Assembly: GCA_903937405.1 (NCBI GenBank)
Contig: CAIZZE010000059.1
Location: 14,075 to 78,074, forward strand
From: an uncultured Alphaproteobacteria bacterium
Lineage (GTDB): Bacteria > Pseudomonadota > Alphaproteobacteria > Rickettsiales > UBA1997
Length of the DNA: 64,000 nt
Direction: 5' to 3'
Position 1 is the stretch's first letter. The number at the start of each line of letters is the position of its first letter. Positions 1,922 through 44,437 of this stretch are shown here, piece after piece. The notes beneath the pieces were generated by a model. The model was not told the DNA's origin. It ran no database searches and was given only the letters and a program-made list of their open reading frames with translations. A program made the translations under genes and the position numbers.

Positions 1922-1963
1922 AATTTTTTATTTTAATCGTAGCAATTTAATGTCACTTATAAG

Positions 1964-2080
1964 CTTGGCGACAACCTACTCTCACTGGACATAAAGACCA
2001 AATACCATCGGCGCGACGTACGTTTCACTTGCGAGTTCGGAATGTGATCGAGTGGTTCCATACCGCTATCCTCACCAAGC
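1964..2080 (-). rRNA. rrf: 5S ribosomal RNA
   Basis: Reverse complement reads gcttggtgaggatagcggtatggaaccac...ccgaactcgcaagtgaaac...gcgccgatggta...gagagtaggttgtcgccaag. It is flanked by complementary aatttaatgtcactt / aagtgacattaaatt processing stems. Confidence 0.9.
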
Positions 2081-2211
2081 CAACAAGTGACATTAAATTA
2101 TAATAATCGATAACTAGAGTAATACCTGCTATTTCAATTGTGTTGTTTATCTCAAGATCCTTACGAATCTTTAATTCGAGCTAGTGTATATTATACCACA
2201 CATAGTTCAAA

Positions 2212-4978
<2,767 letters not shown>

Positions 4979-7899: not shown

Positions 7900-9978
7900 A
7901 TGAGCATCCAAACTCTACTTCAACCTCTTTCCACATTAAAACGCGTCGGCCCAACAATAACTGATTTTTTAGCCCGCTTGGTTGGAGATGACAAAATTTT
8001 TGATTTATTGCTTCATAAACCAGTGCGCGCCGAAAAAATCATGTTAAGCCCTCGCCTTTTTGAAGTGCCAAATGACAGTCTTGTTGTCATCAAAGCCAAA
8101 GTTGAATCACACCTAAAACCAGCAACCTCGCGCCAGCCTTACAAGGTTATTTGCTATACGCCAAGCGGCTATGTAAATTTGGTATTTTTCAAAATTTTCC
8201 CCAGTCAAATTGCAAAAATGTCAATTGGCTTTGAAATTGCGATTTTAGGAAATTTACAAAAAATTGCTGGCGAAAATCAAATCGTTCATCCGCAAGAAAT
8301 TTTACCAGTAAAAGAAATTGAAAAGCTGCCAAAAATTAATGCGATTTATCCTTTGGGTGCAGCGATTTCGCAAAAATTTATTACTCAAAAAATTCACGAA
8401 ACTTTAGCAAAACTTGAAGAAAATATCGAAGAATGGATCGATCACAATCTTTTAAATCAGCAACTCTGGCCTAGTTTTGTGACAGCTTTAAAAAACCTGC
8501 ATTATTTTGCGTTGGAAGAAAAAAATCGCGACAATTTGCATGAAACGGCACGCAAACGCTTGGCTTATGATGAGCTTCTAGCTTGGCAAATCGCGACTCT
8601 GCTCGCAAAATCGCAATCTGGAGAAAAGAAAAAATTTCATAAACCAGAAAAAAATCTTGCCCAAAAATTTCTTATTTCACTTCCTTTTGAACTTACAATC
8701 GGGCAGTCCAAAGCTATTCAAGAAATTTCCTCCGAAATCAATTCTGATAAAAAAATGTTGCGCCTTTTACAAGGCGATGTTGGAAGTGGAAAAACTGTGG
8801 TGGCAATCGCCAGTTGCCTTAACAGCATTTCACAAGAAAAACAAACTTGTGTAATTGCACCAACAACAGTTTTAGCAAAACAGCATTTGACTTACTTCCG
8901 CAAGCTTCTGGAAGGCAATGAAATCAGAATTGAACTTCTTACTTCCGCCAATACAAAAAAACAAAAAGCTAAAATTCTTACCGATTTGATCGAGGGAAAA
9001 ATTGACATTTTAATCAGCACTCACGCGGCTTTGGAAGATGATGTAAAATTTAAAAAACTGGGTCTGGCAATTATCGACGAACAACATCGTTTTGGCGTAA
9101 TGCAACGTTTAAAATTAGTTGAAAAAGGCCAAGATGTTGATGTTTTATTAATGAGCGCAACCCCTATTCCGCGCAGCCTCATGATGGGTTTATATGGCGA
9201 TATGGATATTTCAATTTTGAATGAAAAACCAAAAAATCGTCAACCAATTGAAACTCTGGTAATGTCAGCAAAAAAAATTGCCGATGTTTATCAATCCATA
9301 AAACGCGCGGTTGCGCGCGGTGAAAAAATTTATTGGATTTGCCCAGCAATTGAAGAATCTGAAGAAGTTCAACTAGTTAGCGCTAAACAAAAATTTAGCG
9401 AATTATCCGAAGTTTTCGGCGCTGAAAATGTTGCGCTACTTCACGGAAAAATGAAAGAAAGTGAAAAAGAAAAAGTAATGAATGAATTTTCTAAGTGCGA
9501 TGGAAGCTTGAAAATATTGGTTTCAACTACCGTGATTGAAGTTGGAATTGATGTTCCTGAAGCAACGGTAATTTTAATTGAAAATTCCGAAAATTTCGGA
9601 CTTTCACAACTTCATCAGCTTCGCGGTCGCGTTGGCAGATCGGATAAAAAATCTTTTTGTATTTTACTTTACGGCGAAAAATTTGGTGTAAATGGCCGCA
9701 AAAGATTGAGCATTTTACGCGAATCAAATGATGGATTTTTTATTGCTGAAGAAGATTTAAAAATCCGCGGAAGTGGCGATTTACTTGGCACCAAACAAAG
9801 TGGTTTTCCCGAATTTAAAATTGCTGATTTAACTTTTGACACTGATTTATTGAAAATCGCCCATAAAAATGCCGAACTAATTTTGTATCACGATCAAAAA
9901 CTGCAAAGCAAAAAACATCGCAACCTGCTGCGACTTTTTAATTATGACGATTGTTTGAGGATGATTAATAGCGGCTAA
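7900..9978 (+). CDS. recG: ATP-dependent DNA helicase RecG
   Basis: 692 aa with Walker A GDVGSGKT, DEQHRFG (DExH), and QLHQLRGRVGR in the helicase C domain. Confidence 0.9.
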   Translation: MSIQTLLQPLSTLKRVGPTITDFLARLVGDDKIFDLLLHKPVRAEKIMLSPRLFEVPNDSLVVIKAKVESHLKPATSRQPYKVICYTPSGYVNLVFFKIFPSQIAKMSIGFEIAILGNLQKIAGENQIVHPQEILPVKEIEKLPKINAIYPLGAAISQKFITQKIHETLAKLEENIEEWIDHNLLNQQLWPSFVTALKNLHYFALEEKNRDNLHETARKRLAYDELLAWQIATLLAKSQSGEKKKFHKPEKNLAQKFLISLPFELTIGQSKAIQEISSEINSDKKMLRLLQGDVGSGKTVVAIASCLNSISQEKQTCVIAPTTVLAKQHLTYFRKLLEGNEIRIELLTSANTKKQKAKILTDLIEGKIDILISTHAALEDDVKFKKLGLAIIDEQHRFGVMQRLKLVEKGQDVDVLLMSATPIPRSLMMGLYGDMDISILNEKPKNRQPIETLVMSAKKIADVYQSIKRAVARGEKIYWICPAIEESEEVQLVSAKQKFSELSEVFGAENVALLHGKMKESEKEKVMNEFSKCDGSLKILVSTTVIEVGIDVPEATVILIENSENFGLSQLHQLRGRVGRSDKKSFCILLYGEKFGVNGRKRLSILRESNDGFFIAEEDLKIRGSGDLLGTKQSGFPEFKIADLTFDTDLLKIAHKNAELILYHDQKLQSKKHRNLLRLFNYDDCLRMINSG

Positions 9979-9986
9979 TCTTCGCG

Positions 9987-10040
9987 CCCAAAGCTTATAC
10001 ATGAAATTTTTCCTGATAAATTTCATGTATAAGCTTTGGG
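9987..10040. terminator. perfect 23-bp stem / 8-nt loop hairpin between convergent recG and the orphan operon
   Basis: cccaaagcttatacatgaaattt-ttcctgat-aaatttcatgtataagctttggg. There is no clear U-run on either side. Confidence 0.5.
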
Positions 10041-10160
10041 CTCCCTACAATTTCAGAATCATCTTTAAAACAAGATTCACTGTTTCATCAATTTTTTCTT
10101 AGTTAAACTTTGAGAAGCCTCAACACTAAATATTGACTGAAAAACTTCATTTTATTCCTT

Positions 10161-18758: not shown

Positions 18759-18787
18759 ATTTAAATTCAAACTTCGTTTGAATTTAG
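18759..18787 (-). promoter_or_regulatory. 29-nt hairpin motif ctaaattcaaacGAAGtttgaatttaaat, 8 nt upstream of the MFP start codon
   Basis: On the transcribed (minus) strand it is identical over 29 nt to 43287-43315. It has a 9-bp stem and a GAAG loop. Confidence 0.55.
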
Positions 18788-18841
18788 GTTAATTTGAATT
18801 GCTTACGCACACGATTAAATCGGAGCATCCACAATAGATTT

Positions 18842-19525
18842 TTAGTTTTCTACAATTCTTCCATCTTCCATTTTAATAATGCGGTTAGCGAATTTAAAAA
18901 TACGATCGTCGTGAGTCACAATAACTACAGCGCGACCGCTTTTTAAGGCATTATCGCGCAAAATTTCCATTACTTTCTGACCAGTTGCTGCGTCAAGGGC
19001 TGCTGTTGGTTCATCGCAAATAATTATCGACGGCTCGTGAACCAAAGCGCGCGCAATTGCAACGCGCTGCTGTTGACCGCCAGACAGTTGTGAAGGTAAT
19101 TTTTCGATATGATTTTCCATGCCGATTTCGCGCAAAATTGCGGCTGATTTTTTGCAGGCTTTCGAAATTTCCATATCGTCAGCGATTAGCGGAATTGCTG
19201 CATTTTCTGCGGCAGTTAAAGCGGGCAAAAGATTATATTGCTGAAAAATAAATCCTAAATTTTTGCGACGAAAATTGACTTTTTTTGCGTCGGGAAGATT
19301 GGTAATTATTTCATCATTAATAATTACTTCGCCTTCGCTTTGACTTAAAATTCCGCTAATAATTGAAATTAATGTAGTTTTTCCGCAGCCCGACGGACCA
19401 ACAAGCATCGTGATTTCGCCGGCATAAATTTTTAGATTTATGTCAAAAAGCACACGCATTTTTTGTTCGCCAACTTGAAAATCTTTACTGATATTTTTGG
19501 TTTCGATGGAGATTTTTTTATTCAT
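18842..19525 (-). CDS. ABC transporter ATP-binding protein (MacB/LolD/DevA-like)
   Basis: 227 aa with Walker A GPSGCGKTT, signature LSGGQQQRVAIARAL and Walker B IIICDEPT. Confidence 0.9.
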   Translation of the reverse strand: MNKKISIETKNISKDFQVGEQKMRVLFDINLKIYAGEITMLVGPSGCGKTTLISIISGILSQSEGEVIINDEIITNLPDAKKVNFRRKNLGFIFQQYNLLPALTAAENAAIPLIADDMEISKACKKSAAILREIGMENHIEKLPSQLSGGQQQRVAIARALVHEPSIIICDEPTAALDAATGQKVMEILRDNALKSGRAVVIVTHDDRIFKFANRIIKMEDGRIVEN

Positions 19526-24803: not shown

Positions 24804-26726
24804 ATGTCACCAATCATCGGTTTTGCACTTTTATTATTAGTACTTTCGATCAGCATTTTTTTACCGGTTTTTAACTTCGCTTCTTTACGCAAAAAAAACC
24901 CGACAAAATTTTTAGAATTAGAAAAAATCTCTTTTTATCTAACTGCTCTAAGCTTTGTCGCCGCTGCAATTTCACAACTTTGTCTAATTCATTCTTTCAT
25001 AATTTCTGATTATTCCGTCGCCAATGTTTACCAAAATTCCCACCACTTAAAGCCATTAATCTATAAAATTTCTGGTAGCTGGGGAAATCACGAAGGATCA
25101 ATGCTGTTGCTGATTTCCATACTTTCTGCTTACAGTTTTGGTTTCGCTTTTTTAAGCAAAATTGATAATGAGAGAAAAGTTATTATCTCTTCCGCGCAAT
25201 CCTCAATCATCGCGCTACTCGCAGCTTTCACCGCTTTTACTTCCAATCCTTTTGAGAGAATTTTCCCAACTCCCGAAGTTGGTTTAGGCTTAAATCCTCT
25301 TTTACAAGATATCGGCCTCGCGCTACATCCACCAATGCTTTACACTGGCTATATCGGATTTTCTTTAATTTTTTCTTTCGCCATCGCCGGACTTTTATCG
25401 GAAAGAATCGATAAAAAATTCGCACAACATTTAAAAGGCTGGCTATTTTTTTCTTACGGTTTTTTAACTTTCGGAATTGGTCTCGGCGCTTGGTGGGCTT
25501 ATCGCGAACTTGGTTGGGGCGGCTATTGGTTTTGGGATCCGGTAGAAAATATTTCACTCATGCCTTGGATCGCCGCAACCGCATTAATTCACTGCTTAAA
25601 ACTTTTAGAAAAAAAAGAAATTTTCAAAATCTGGACGGCATTTTTAGCAATTTTAACTTTCATTTTATGCCTGCTTGGCCTTTTTTTAGTGCGCTCTGGC
25701 GTATTAACTTCAGTTCATTCTTTTGCCATTGATGCCAAGCGCGGATTTTTTGTTATCGGATTAATTTTCTTAATCGGCGGCGCCGGACTTTTAATTCTTG
25801 GCGCTAAAATTCCGCGCCTAAAAAGTGAACAAAATAAAATTTTCTTCTGGTCAAAAACGGGTTCGATTTTACTCAATAATTATTTTCTGATTGTTGCTTT
25901 ATTCGTGGTGCTTCTTGGCACAATTTACCCAATTTTTTCGCGCGGAATTTTCGATGAATTTATTTCAATTGGTCCGGAATATTATAACAAAATTTTTGGT
26001 TTTTTAATTACGCCATTTTTGATTTTTTTGGCGATTTCAAATCAGCTAAATTATTCAGAAAAAACAGCTAAGAAAAAATTTATAAATCGTAAAATTGCTT
26101 TGATTTTAGGGCTTTCAGCGCTCATTACTTCTTCCGTTTTTTTATATCATAAAAGCGCCGATTTCTTGCAGATTATTATTTTATTTTTGGCGATTCTTTC
26201 AGCTGTAATTACGCTTTTTTCTGGAGGAAAATCTTTTCAAAAACTCCGTCATCCTGAACTCGTTTCAGGATCTAATCTCGCAATGACTTTAGCTCATTTC
26301 GGCTTTTCAATAATCATCGTCGGCATTGTAATGACTTCGTCTTTCGGCCTTACCAAAGAAACAAATCTCAAGAAAAATGAATCACTAAAAATTGCCAATT
26401 TTGAAATCAAATTTTTAGACGTAGAATATTTCGCCGGTAAAAATTTTATCTCGCGCCAAGGTGATTTTTTAGTTACAAAAAATGGTCAGGAAATTGCGCA
26501 TTTAAAACCGCAATTGCGCTATTATCCAATCTCGGAACAAACAACAAATGAAGCGTCAATTAAACATGGATTTTTTGGCGATCTTTATTTGGTAATCGGA
26601 AATAAAGATGAAGAAGAAAACTACGCCGTACGCGCTTATTACAAGCCATTCATTTACTTAATTTGGCTGGGTTGTATCTTAATTTTTCTTGCCACTTTTT
26701 TAAAAATTTTCCGCAAAAAAATATGA
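24804..26726 (+). CDS. ccmF: cytochrome c-type biogenesis protein CcmF (heme lyase subunit)
   Basis: 640 aa, polytopic. It carries the WGGYWFWDPVEN (WWD) motif and GSWGNHEGSMLL. A repeat arm is embedded in-frame at 26248-26275. Confidence 0.85.
   Translation: MSPIIGFALLLLVLSISIFLPVFNFASLRKKNPTKFLELEKISFYLTALSFVAAAISQLCLIHSFIISDYSVANVYQNSHHLKPLIYKISGSWGNHEGSMLLLISILSAYSFGFAFLSKIDNERKVIISSAQSSIIALLAAFTAFTSNPFERIFPTPEVGLGLNPLLQDIGLALHPPMLYTGYIGFSLIFSFAIAGLLSERIDKKFAQHLKGWLFFSYGFLTFGIGLGAWWAYRELGWGGYWFWDPVENISLMPWIAATALIHCLKLLEKKEIFKIWTAFLAILTFILCLLGLFLVRSGVLTSVHSFAIDAKRGFFVIGLIFLIGGAGLLILGAKIPRLKSEQNKIFFWSKTGSILLNNYFLIVALFVVLLGTIYPIFSRGIFDEFISIGPEYYNKIFGFLITPFLIFLAISNQLNYSEKTAKKKFINRKIALILGLSALITSSVFLYHKSADFLQIIILFLAILSAVITLFSGGKSFQKLRHPELVSGSNLAMTLAHFGFSIIIVGIVMTSSFGLTKETNLKKNESLKIANFEIKFLDVEYFAGKNFISRQGDFLVTKNGQEIAHLKPQLRYYPISEQTTNEASIKHGFFGDLYLVIGNKDEEENYAVRAYYKPFIYLIWLGCILIFLATFLKIFRKKI
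26248..26275. repeat. single arm of the GATCCTGAAACAAGTTCAGGATGAC palindromic family inside the ccmF reading frame
   Basis: gtcatcctgaactcgtttcaggatctaa matches 43168-43195 (gtcattctgaacttgtttcaggatctaa) at 26 of 28 positions. It is translated as RHPELVSGSN. Confidence 0.7.
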
Positions 26727-28773: not shown

Positions 28774-28872
28774 CCCAAGTCGACCCCGTCGTGAAGACGG
28801 GGTGACACTGAGTATGGTTGATGTACATACTTCCAACTTGTCACCCCGTCTTCACGACGGGGTCCACTCGGG
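28774..28872. repeat. 99-bp nested palindromic element (RPE-like)
   Basis: The 34-nt arms cccaagtcgaccccgtcgtgaagacggggtgaca and tgtcaccccgtcttcacgacggggtccactcggg differ at 2 positions. Each arm itself contains the hairpin accccgtc-loop-gacggggt, and the centre also pairs (agtatg/catact). Confidence 0.75.
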
Positions 28873-32944: not shown

Positions 32945-33763
32945 TTAATTAATTAATTTTTTTAGCTGATCACTTGCCAACAGCGACTTCATCTGCGAAA
33001 TAGCAATCTCATTCAGATTTTTTAATCTCTCGCCTTGCGATAAATTTTGTTTGATCAAAACCGAATTAATGCTCTCCAAATTTGTCATCACAACCAACTG
33101 TTCTAAGGTTGCATTATCTCGTAAATTTCCCTCAAGATCAGGATTTTCTTTTTTGAATTCAGTGGCGGTTTTTCCAAACAAAGCAACATTCAATAAATCG
33201 GCTTCATTGGCGTAAATCGTTGATATTTGCTGTTTGGAAAGAGTTTTGGGAATTAGATTTTCTTTAATGGCATCAGTATGAATGCGGTAATTTATTTTCG
33301 CCAAAGTGCGCTGCAAATTCCATTCCAGCTTGAGGCGATTATTTTCATCCTCTTTGAGTCGCTGGAATTCTTTAACTAAATAAAGTTTAAATTCTGCAGA
33401 AACCCAAGAAGCGAATTCAAAAGCGATATCTTTGTGGGCAAAAGTTCCACCTGTTTTACCAACTTTAGAAATAATCCCAATCGCATCAGTATTTTCTATC
33501 CATTTACTAGGAGAAAGAACAAAGGCATTTGCTCCGGCTTCTTGCCAAAAGGAGTCGAATTCGACCCCTTTAAAATTTTGATTATTAATTTTTTCCCATA
33601 GACCAAGAAACTCGATGGTATTTTTTGATCTCATCCAATTCTTTACTAAATCTTTTGGTTCATCGGGATTTTTATGACGAGCAATATCTGTTAGCGAAAT
33701 GTAATCGCTGCTACTGGCTTTAAGTATGGAAATTTGTAATTTTTTGATGGTGATTTTCTTCAT
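32945..33763 (-). CDS. KilA-N domain DNA-binding protein
   Basis: 272 aa. It has the blocks YISLTDIARHK...NWMRSKNTIEFLGLWE and GGTFAHKDIAFEFASWVSAEFKLYL, followed by a coiled C-terminal half. Confidence 0.6.
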   Translation of the reverse strand: MKKITIKKLQISILKASSSDYISLTDIARHKNPDEPKDLVKNWMRSKNTIEFLGLWEKINNQNFKGVEFDSFWQEAGANAFVLSPSKWIENTDAIGIISKVGKTGGTFAHKDIAFEFASWVSAEFKLYLVKEFQRLKEDENNRLKLEWNLQRTLAKINYRIHTDAIKENLIPKTLSKQQISTIYANEADLLNVALFGKTATEFKKENPDLEGNLRDNATLEQLVVMTNLESINSVLIKQNLSQGERLKNLNEIAISQMKSLLASDQLKKLIN

Positions 33764-35255: not shown

Positions 35256-36746
<1,491 letters not shown>

Positions 36747-43027: not shown

Positions 43028-43114
43028 AAAAATTTAGGAAATTAAATTTTTAGGAACTAGAAATTATTTATACTTTCAGTTGCCTATATCAAAGTCCTTT
43101 TGAATTCAGCATAA

Positions 43115-43195
43115 TTAGATCCTGAAACAAGTTCAGGATGACAGCTTTGGTAGACATTCCTACAATCGTCATTCTGAACTTGTTTCAGGATCTAA
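43115..43195. repeat. 81-bp palindromic element, best-preserved copy of the GATCCTGAAACAAGTTCAGGATGAC family
   Basis: The 28-nt arms ttagatcctgaaacaagttcaggatgac and gtcattctgaacttgtttcaggatctaa differ at 1 position. The spacer is 25 nt. Confidence 0.8.
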
Positions 43196-43241
43196 TAACG
43201 AGAAGTCCAAATGTTTAGTATATACCAAAAAAACAAATCTA

Positions 43242-43275
43242 TTGCGGATGCGCGGGTTTATCCCGCGCGTAGCAA
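43242..43275. repeat. GC-rich hairpin
   Basis: ttgc-ggatgcgcggg-tttat-cccgcgcgta-gcaa. Confidence 0.5.
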
Positions 43276-43286
43276 TTCAAATAAAA

Positions 43287-43315
43287 CTAAATTCAAACGA
43301 AGTTTGAATTTAAAT
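43287..43315 (+). promoter_or_regulatory. 29-nt hairpin motif ctaaattcaaacGAAGtttgaatttaaat, 12 nt upstream of the piuB-like start codon
   Basis: Identical to the transcribed-strand sequence at 18759-18787. Confidence 0.55.
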
Positions 43316-43327
43316 TATCCCAATTCC

Positions 43328-44437
43328 ATGAGAAAAATTCTAAAAAAACTTCATCTTTATCTCGCAATAACTCTTTGCATTCCCTTGGTATTACAAGGCA
43401 TCACTGGCCTAATAATGGTTTTTCAGCATGAGATTTCCAATTACCAACTTCACACAAAACATGTTTTTGCAAGCGGCGAAATTCAAGCACCGAGCAAAAT
43501 AATTATTTCAGCTTTAACTCAGGTTCCAGAAGGCTCCAAGGTAAATTCTATCAAATTACCAATCGCAGAAAAATCGCCGGCAGTTGTACGTTTAACCAAA
43601 AAAATTGAAGAAAAAAAATCAATTTTTGAAGTTGTAGCTGATCCAGTTTCGCTTGAAATTATAGAAGTAAAAAATCCGGAAAATGACTTTTTTAAAAACC
43701 TCAAAAAATTCCACTCCAGCCTTTTTATTCCAGGTCAAACCGGCAAAAATATTGTCGGCACTTTTGGCTTGGTAATGTTGTTCATGGTAATTAGCGGATT
43801 AGTTATTTGGTGGCCGAAAAAAATCACCTTTAAACGCGCCATGACTTTTAAATTTAGTTCAACCGGCAAACAATTTCATCGCGACTTACACAGCGCCGTG
43901 GGCTTTTGGACATCACTCATAATTTTCATCACCAGTTTTGCTGGAGTTTATTTGGCTTTCACGCCGCAAACTACCGCAACAATTTTAGCAATTTTTCCAG
44001 GTAAAGATTTAAAGAAAAGCGCCAATGAAATGGTAATTGATCCTGGTTCAAGCTTTTTGACAATCGATGAGCTCGCAGACTTTGCTGCACAAAAGGTTTC
44101 AAGTGATGATAAATTACTTTCAATAAATTTTCCGATGAAACCAGAGCAGCCTTTTCGCATAAATTTTGTACCAAAAAATTATGAAGATGGCGAACCAATT
44201 ATCACAGTTTTTATCGATCAATATTGGCAAAGAATTTTGGAAGTTCGTGATCCAAAAAATTATTCTTTAGGAGAAAAAATAATCGCCTGGCAACATTCAA
44301 TTCATGCTGGTGAAGGCTTGGGATATTTGTGGAAAATTACGGTGTTTTTGACCGGATTTTTGCCGTTACTTTTTTCAATTACTGGAATTTCTTTGTGGCT
44401 TATTAAGAGAAAAAGCAAAAAGCTGAAGGCAGCTTAA
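43328..44437 (+). CDS. PepSY-associated TM helix protein (PiuB-like)
   Basis: I prefer the ATG at 43328 (MRKILKKLHLYLAITLCIPL...), because the ORF-track start at 43211 would read through three palindromic elements. It has the four-TM PepSY_TM pattern and lies downstream of piuC. Confidence 0.65.
   Translation: MRKILKKLHLYLAITLCIPLVLQGITGLIMVFQHEISNYQLHTKHVFASGEIQAPSKIIISALTQVPEGSKVNSIKLPIAEKSPAVVRLTKKIEEKKSIFEVVADPVSLEIIEVKNPENDFFKNLKKFHSSLFIPGQTGKNIVGTFGLVMLFMVISGLVIWWPKKITFKRAMTFKFSSTGKQFHRDLHSAVGFWTSLIIFITSFAGVYLAFTPQTTATILAIFPGKDLKKSANEMVIDPGSSFLTIDELADFAAQKVSSDDKLLSINFPMKPEQPFRINFVPKNYEDGEPIITVFIDQYWQRILEVRDPKNYSLGEKIIAWQHSIHAGEGLGYLWKITVFLTGFLPLLFSITGISLWLIKRKSKKLKAA

Follow-up and report, generated by a model that had tools for sequence, protein, structure and literature searches.

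A probable palindromic-repeat remnant read in frame within ccmF of an uncultured Rickettsiales-related alphaproteobacterium

Rickettsia palindromic elements (RPEs; Ogata et al. 2000) are, as summarised in PMC10969869, small palindromes with an intrinsic open frame that reside between genes and also in frame within unrelated housekeeping genes. Other described systems include the repetitive extragenic palindromes REP/BIME/REPIN, which are mobilised by RAYT (TnpA-REP) HUH transposases (PMC3116915, PMC6006769), and the dRS3/NIME repeats of Neisseria, sequences of the form ATTCCC-N8-GGGAAT that have been proposed as targets of a phage-encoded recombinase (PMC1797815). Here we analyzed a stretch of 64,000 nucleotides (hereafter the window) of contig CAIZZE010000059.1 from an uncultured alphaproteobacterium, and in it a short segment of the cytochrome c maturation gene ccmF. 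A sequence-only reading had taken this segment for one arm of a palindromic repeat family embedded in frame in the gene. Our results support and sharpen that interpretation, as the segment is very probably what remains of a small palindromic repeat, non-autonomous in nature, that inserted into ccmF.

The gene and the parts of the insertion within it are as follows.

24804-26726, plus strand: ccmF coding sequence, 640 amino acids (aa), host gene of the insertion (Pfam CcmF_C, 4.9e-71; Cytochrom_C_asm, 4.4e-42).
26226-26236, plus strand: deletion junction GGAAAATCTTT, from the DNA alignment of the window with the related strain L206.
26229-26273, plus strand: remnant of the element, about 45 nt or 15 codons (KSFQKLRHPELVSGS), made up of the spacer remainder and the right arm, from protein and DNA alignments with empty (L200, L201) and full (L202, L203, L206) alleles.
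26248-26275, plus strand: right arm of the palindromic element (covariance model R1, 45.8 bits, E 1.4e-9).
26251-26271, plus strand: hairpin inside the right arm, perfect over 8 bp with a 5-nt loop, GTC foot before it and CT after it.

The left boundary of the remnant is accurate to within a few nucleotides, the flank there being A-rich.

The arm at 26248-26275 is gtcatcctgaactcgtttcaggatctaa in the window sequence. A mismatch-tolerant search placed this 28-mer at 43168-43195 on the plus strand with two mismatches, which is the 26/28 match claimed earlier, and at 43115-43142 on the minus strand with a single mismatch; 100 dinucleotide-preserving shuffles gave no match at all. The likeness to a further arm at 1811-1838 is real though weaker (73% over the 30 nt of 1811-1840), with R1 scoring 18.4 bits at 1817-1833 (E 0.015) and reaching E 0.15 at 1758-1788 on the minus strand. 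The ccmF frame runs through the arm (...GGKSFQKLRHPELVSGSNLAMTLAHFG...) without stop or frameshift and reads it as RHPELVSGS, so the translated open reading frame (ORF) agrees with the in-frame reading in a loop before LAHFG that had been proposed. By itself the arm forms a perfect 8-bp hairpin in the hairpin scan, ATCCTGAA-ctcgt-TTCAGGAT, with GTC before and CT after it, a feature that the sequence-only reading did not mention.

Comparison with relatives showed that the segment is an insertion relative to the CcmF family, as had been suspected. A scan of metagenomes with CcmF returned only relatives of 70% identity or less, and the close alleles were obtained by exact protein look-up. In the protein search, close orthologues came in four lengths: 625, 640, 652-653 and 669 aa. 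The segment is absent from the 625-aa orthologues (92-95% identical), which read ...FSSK-NIAMTLAHFG, and from all outgroups at 64-79% identity, which are equally short and of the FSSK-N(I/V)AMTLAHFG type; its carriers are only the window protein, P0001-P0006 and their 90% cluster. Relative to the 625-aa form, the window protein and P0001 (640 aa) have 15 additional residues, and P0002, P0003, P0004 and P0006 (652-653 aa) have 27-28, KILKQVQD(D/E)A..GEL...NLRHPELVSGS. Since ILKQVQDD is the translation of the reverse-complement arm, the complete element with its two arms is in frame in the 652-653-aa alleles. A further internal repeat, of 16 residues, is seen in P0005 (669 aa).

The same series was seen at the DNA level. 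The empty site is TTTTTTCCAGCAAA|AATATCGCAATGAC and is clean against the filled alleles, and the insert of the full allele, 84 nt in total, is composed of AGATCCTGAAACAAGTTCAGGATGA, a 32-nt spacer and GTCATCCCGAACTTGTTTCGGGATCT. In L204 a 48-nt tandem duplication is added to the element. The window allele equals an L206-type allele less 36 nt, taken out between two AAATC microhomologies, by which the left arm (…CTCAAACAATTTCAAGATGATAACGCAGAGAAATC in L206) is gone; the corresponding junction in the protein is SKGKILKQFQDDNAEKSFQKL in P0004 and SGGKSFQKL in the window. The single arm, which had been put down to an old or partial insertion, is thus explained by a 36-nt in-frame deletion that took the left arm, as sister alleles keep both. 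All of the ccmF indels (+84/+81, +48 and -36 nt) are multiples of three. The exact window protein is present on 29 contigs, the longest of 116 kb, and the window allele is therefore real and common. Taken together, this is a real case of selfish DNA resident in a working gene, and it provides a natural series, within one closely related population, of a palindrome entering a cytochrome c maturation membrane enzyme and then undergoing frame-preserving indels.

The opposite polarity, an ancestral CcmF loop that was deleted in the 625-aa lineage, would require the likeness to the palindrome to have arisen because the repeat was born from ccmF, or by chance. The loop does vary in length within the family, being longer in T. 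thermophilus and in some Pelagibacterales-like sequences. Against this, every outgroup at 64-79% identity is short, and in distant relatives the loops that are longer bear no relation in sequence; moreover, the core of the arm occurs at hundreds of unrelated places in distant phyla (see below), so it is not derived from ccmF, and chance is excluded by the shuffles. We consequently give this explanation almost no weight.

Where the insert lies in the protein may account for its being tolerated. In an AlphaFold model made from the CcmF alignment, of moderate quality (pLDDT, the predicted local distance difference test score, 60.7), residues 475-490 (pLDDT <50) are found between helices 454-474 and 484-514; the latter carries His498 of LAHFG, and the beta-rich domain 516-614 comes next. 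The proposed position just ahead of the LAHFG block is accordingly mapped to a poorly modelled inter-helix loop directly before the His498 helix. The T. thermophilus CcmF structure 6ZMQ, which aligns to the window CcmF at 1.6e-61, likewise has a longer, basic loop at this position, and distant CcmF relatives have unrelated loops of differing length there. With His498, which we take from the CcmF literature to be the second transmembrane histidine ligating haem b, and with a beta domain that is presumably periplasmic, as in the established CcmF topology, the inserted loop would be placed on the cytoplasmic side. The added K, K, R and H residues agree with the positive-inside rule; it counts against the placement that it draws on a mediocre model (pLDDT 60.7) and on textbook CcmF topology. 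The insert thus marks a permissive CcmF loop adjoining the helix of the conserved His498. Separately, the more distant CcmF P0027 (664 aa) has 39 residues of unrelated sequence, PAFSEELEGGSDRRSEVYKDIHRASRIEPTEQLPLKVGF, inserted into its periplasmic beta domain (alignment columns 608-646), which may be another repeat-derived insert.

Between P0002 and P0004, 18 of 30 residues are identical in the insert and 558 of 572 elsewhere, corresponding to a divergence of the insert about 16 times that of the remaining protein. This rate suggests, from sequence comparison, a tolerated passenger and not an adaptation, and the insert peptide would then be a passenger linker and not a functional module. The full element in ccmF folds at -47.6 kcal/mol (z -8.1) and the lone arm of the window has a fold z of -0.9; together with the left arm, ccmF has therefore lost a very strong secondary structure. 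In the right arm of L202 we observed a compensated change, CCTGAA/TTCAGG to CCCGAA/TTCGGG, which could stem from selection for pairing or from conversion from another copy, and in L206 both ccmF hairpins have decayed. It is conceivable that the insert was co-opted, in that its extra basic residues or its mRNA hairpin serve the folding, topology or expression of CcmF. The allele is common, its added charges agree with the positive-inside rule, the arm hairpin of the window is still perfect and that of L202 compensated. However, the peptide diverges about 16-fold faster than the remaining protein, empty, full, duplicated and half alleles coexist in closely related populations, both hairpins have decayed in L206, and the lone arm of the window has no significant fold. 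Co-option is in our opinion very unlikely.

Covariance model R1 of the arm was run across the whole window with filters off. Strong matches were limited to the ccmF arm and both arms at 43115-43195, and weak ones were obtained at 28779-28867 and 1758-1833. The copies outside ccmF are the following.

43089-43225, unstranded: complete intergenic copy, 137 nt, with core arms 43115-43142 and 43168-43195 and extended 44-nt arms 43099-43142 and 43168-43211.
1757-1840, unstranded: decayed copy with two arms, lying some 120 nt downstream of the 5S rRNA gene (1963-2079).
28774-28872, unstranded: G+C-rich sister element, both arms GTC-ACCCCGTC-ttcac-GACGGGGT-C, between an NDUS4-like gene and gshA.

One of the four window loci is consequently coding. 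The complete copy at 43089-43225 has a predicted RNA fold of -50.1 kcal/mol (z -8.0), and its part 43119-43196 has the same open frame as the ccmF insert. It is a 137-nt presence/absence polymorphism: L244, in which the product of the neighbouring gene is 94% identical, lacks it and has the empty site CCTATA|CCAAAA. The copy is flanked by a TATA direct repeat, with TA directly outside GATC...GATC. Rfam at gathering thresholds found only rRNAs and one tRNA in the window, and in E-value mode on 43050-43330 only generic long-hairpin miRNA models far below threshold, so the element belongs to no known RNA family. A role as terminator was rejected, as no T-run follows the hairpin. The sister element is found in all of the related strains (window 28774-28872; L200 8951-9089; L202 14000-14140; L204 8104-8374; L206 13763-13906). 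Compared with the window and L200, its spacer is reverse-complemented in L202 and L206, having flipped between the inverted arms, and the two arms of the window and L200 are replaced by four arm-like units in tandem in L204 (three intact hairpins in a strict scan).

The hairpin of the arm extends well beyond this lineage. An exact 23-mer, CATYCTGAACTYGTTTCAGGATC, was found in more than 119 genome stretches among the matches listed from a species-representative genome collection, where we estimate that about 0.07 would be expected by chance, and the arm is thus repeated beyond the loci noted earlier. Its hosts include Patescibacteria, Gracilibacteria, Bacteroidota, Sphingomonadales, Treponema (Spirochaetota), Shewanella and a metagenome-assembled genome (MAG) of Heliobacteriaceae, and further Campylobacterota and Alpha- and Gammaproteobacteria; the exact hairpin is also in Ca. 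Megaera venefica and a Rickettsiaceae MAG (L073, L097). It was furthermore seen in 34 viral contigs (L208-L241) and on plasmids (H1-H9), mainly conjugative and of sphingomonads. The repeat family that the sequence-only reading had assigned to this genome is therefore not peculiar to it, given such hairpins across phyla, and the invasion of ccmF itself, here a presumably essential gene, is supported.

GT nearly always precedes the 23-mer, which is often accompanied by a second, inverted hairpin, alike in design but differing in its stem. In 855 kb of 23-mer loci we counted 205 sites with GTCAT and a perfect hairpin, compared with one in shuffled sequence, and C follows the hairpin at 200 of the 205. 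When the stem positions were left free, all four variable pairs were Watson-Crick in 68 of 79 distinct 27-mers, with pair 1 being CG in 34, TA in 19 and GC in 23. As judged from these sequences, the covariation of the hairpin stem is genuine. Single hairpins occur solo, in both relative orientations and in arrays, one of which, in Sphingomonas echinoides (L078), has a period of 163. An adapter or assembly artefact was rejected, because copies are internal to contigs, including those of isolate genomes, have differing flanks and compensated stems, and the window allele of ccmF was met on 29 contigs. In L011, L071, L092 and L093 (Falkowbacteria, a gammaproteobacterial MAG and others), a tandem stutter of three to five units of the hairpin's 5' half (N8-GTCATCCTGAAC) stands directly before a complete hairpin.

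Copies are found in long open frames in 16 of 134 cases, compared with 65% for random positions. Those that are in frame in conserved proteins, as confirmed by Pfam (L020, L049, L077, L087, L096, L098), include Treponema GltB, where the hairpin lies between two domains, Patescibacteria Fpg, which holds a full pair, and RarA/MgsA, a class I/II aminotransferase, an Fe-ADH and a FemAB protein. A RefSeq-annotated 4Fe-4S protein of Sulfurovum mangrovi (L247 1002-2141) reads ...RHSGLDLESQKSEDEILNQVQDD..., and in-frame hairpins are usually read as (C)HPELVSGS or ILKQVQDD. Literature string searches with the DNA motif and the typical peptides found no match among the papers searched. It is possible, though we regard it as doubtful, that the ccmF arm is one copy of an undescribed, horizontally spreading hairpin superfamily with a GTCAT foot, arranged in REPIN/NIME-like doublets and arrays and repeatedly in frame in enzymes; its consensus may be GTC-AT-n-C-n-G-r-A, a CTTGT-like loop, the complement and C. 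If this were true, a single pan-bacterial class would show itself locally as coding palindromes of the RPE type and as hairpins of the dRS3 type, with a widely distributed hairpin-recognising enzyme to service it. A hairpin family of this kind, if undescribed, would suggest that an activity specific for hairpins, be it mobilisation or recombination, is very widespread, and would be a recurrent, cheap source of protein loop insertions.

For the ccmF locus we propose the following course of events. The element is a spacer of about 25-32 nt enclosed by two inverted hairpin units of about 26 nt, GTC-ATCCTGAA-cttgt-TTCAGGAT-CT, and the alleles show that an 84-nt copy (28 codons) entered the loop-coding DNA between two late CcmF transmembrane helices, in the common ancestor of one sub-lineage. 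Three of the six arm frames are free of stops, and in the orientation and phase of the ccmF copy the whole element is read as ...ILKQVQDD-spacer-RHPELVSGS..., with survival of the gene. The loop presumably accepts extra length, and selection would have kept frame-preserving changes only. Afterwards the alleles took separate courses, with drift in one lineage, the 48-nt duplication in another and, in that of the window, the loss of 36 nt including the left arm. This deletion, by the predicted fold, removes a hairpin of about -48 kcal/mol from gene and mRNA, from which a benefit could follow; it may have been favoured, or it may have been neutral.

The weakest step of this proposal is how the element spreads. 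Because the arms fold independently, the foot is conserved and the stem pairs covary, a folded single strand may be what is recognised, in the way that REP/REPIN sequences are by HUH (RAYT-type) enzymes, or by hairpin-targeting recombinases. Hairpin arms with covarying stems at the same time argue against a DDE transposase that would recognise terminal repeats in double-stranded form. Mobility as such is supported by the 137-nt presence/absence polymorphism at 43089-43225 relative to L244 and, in the sister element, by the inverted spacer and the amplified arms.

Recognition in double-stranded form is assumed if the element is instead a classical MITE (miniature inverted-repeat transposable element), that is, a deletion derivative of an insertion sequence with a DDE transposase, bounded by terminal inverted repeats and inserting at TA with a target-site duplication. 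The TATA direct repeat around the intergenic copy and the TA directly outside GATC...GATC would be in line with this, and the lineage harbours a separate MITE of about 160 nt with a clean TA duplication that is polymorphic in the same strains. Internal hairpin arms with covarying pairs are, however, not needed by an enzyme that reads double-stranded repeats; the inserted unit measures 84 nt at one site and 137 nt at the other, single hairpins occur alone, in either relative orientation and in arrays, and the sequences examined contained no parent insertion sequence whose ends are of the GATCCTGAAACAAGTTCAGGATGAC type. We consider a classical MITE unlikely.

Several observations weigh against an insertion of a mobile hairpin element as proposed here. 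No Y1, DDE or IS110-type enzyme was detected by Pfam among the 20 window ORFs of less obvious identity, and there was no transposase or recombinase among the annotated syntenic genes of relatives. Nor does any transposase family recur near 153 hairpin loci elsewhere (ORFs of at least 90 aa, BLASTP clustering), near which only families of ABC transporters and phage structural genes recur. Alphaproteobacteria are reported to possess few tnpA(Y1) genes or none, and the hairpin foot GTCA(T), which is GTCAT in every copy, is not the canonical REP guide GT[AG]G (PMC6006769). Copy number in the lineage is low: there are four loci per 64 kb of window, and the strong R1 matches in 176 kb of relatives' contigs are the ccmF copies only. 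The flank at ccmF, A-rich and diverged since the insertion, does not allow a target-site duplication to be resolved. Finally, the unit of 137 nt with its TATA repeat at the intergenic site and that of 84 nt in ccmF differ in size, which implies a mobile unit without fixed ends.

Among the known systems, RPEs are in function the closest: the ccmF insertion is the RPE phenomenon, in a different Rickettsiales-related lineage and perhaps with a different sequence family. As far as the summary of RPEs describes them, both are small palindromes with an intrinsic open frame, occur between genes as well as in frame, are tolerated in surface or loop positions and decay later; here, intergenic copies at 43089-43225, 1757-1840 and 28774-28872 stand beside the in-frame ccmF copy. 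The host is a relative of Rickettsiales, with a split rRNA operon and a nearest named CcmF from a 'Rickettsiales bacterium'. They differ in that the present element is shorter, 84-137 nt compared with about 100-150 nt given for RPEs in the same summary, and in its low copy number, its autonomous hairpin arms and the occurrence of the hairpin far outside Rickettsiales. The NCBIfam library contains RPE domain models. The four insert peptides, which are short, matched nothing in NCBIfam or Pfam at E up to 10. The earlier suggestion that the family is unrelated to RPEs may accord with this, yet Rickettsiaceae (L073, L097) too have the exact hairpin. The 'coding palindrome' phenomenon of Rickettsia is hereby extended to a lineage of uncultured alphaproteobacteria for which environmental metagenome assemblies are the only source.

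With REPINs the element shares a hairpin unit of 20-40 nt with a conserved foot, found as singlets, doublets and clusters, mostly extragenic and with covarying stems, and an inverted doublet whose spacer and arms form one long hairpin (-50.1 and -47.6 kcal/mol, z about -8). REP families are normally species-specific, whereas the 23-mer is shared unchanged between phyla; REPINs are not known for inserting in frame into coding sequence, and no RAYT gene was found in the window or recurring near the 153 copies. The resemblance to dRS3 lies in a fixed outer part with a free centre, here AT(C/T)C(T/C)GAA-N5-TTC(A/G)G(A/G)AT, and that to NIMEs in repeats that flank variable spacers and build arrays with strain-variable unit number, as in the sister element and L078. 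In some genomes, such as Pedobacter (L045), literal dRS3-type hairpins adjoin the present hairpin. The 20-bp dRS3 repeat ATTCCCNNNNNNNNGGGAAT nevertheless differs from the arms ATCCTGAA-N5-TTCAGGAT in its conserved hexamers (PMC1797815), and NIMEs are described as Neisseria-specific and intergenic, with no link to a phage or IS110-type integrase seen here. Finally, intragenic MITEs of the ERIC (enterobacterial repetitive intergenic consensus), BOX and Correia type are, like the element, small non-autonomous repeats through which the reading of a host ORF can continue, but they are longer, with defined terminal repeats and in some cases known target duplications, and confined to one genus or family (PMC10969869).

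Other repeats were observed in the window and in related strains. The MITE of about 160 nt has terminal inverted repeats of about 32 nt (TACCAAATTAACTATCTCTTGATAGC...) and a clean TA duplication, and occupies two intergenic sites in L202 (2756-2918 and 3902-4060), whereas L201 has an empty site at 2990-3005. The window further has a repeat of about 90 nt in two mutually inverted copies (45 nt at 96%), at 18759-18849 and 43227-43315, in which GCGCGGG-tttat-CCCGCGC and AAATTCAAAC-gaa-GTTTGAATTT form two small hairpins. This repeat is intergenic, by a PepSY-like gene and between HlyD-like and ABC genes, and is also in L244 and L202. Between thrC and ccmF of L204 (3896-4057), and in that strain only, a different palindrome of G/C runs (caaaaccccccaaccccccttaacagggggg...) and a short tandem repeat are inserted. 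A near-perfect palindrome with 27-nt arms and a 2-nt centre (9986-10041) directly follows the 692-aa ORF at 7900-9978 of the window and is probably a terminator-like hairpin.

Gene lengths also vary among the strains: the OEP (outer-membrane efflux) gene encodes 498 aa in one (L206 1196-2692) and 443 aa in others (e.g. L201 1552-2883), and the neighbours NDUS4 (82/94/113 aa) and ABC (205/227 aa) vary likewise. These differences may be repeat-associated indels or differences in gene calling. KilA-N and Bro-N domain proteins and a HepT-like/NTase-substrate-binding toxin-antitoxin component lie amid housekeeping genes (32945-33763, 50079-50912 and 51455-51847), which suggests small mobile or phage-derived islands. 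The G+C content of the window is 37%, and its rRNA genes are split, with 23S-5S (1963-4974) and 16S (35256-36744) about 30 kb apart on the same strand, an arrangement typical of Rickettsiales.

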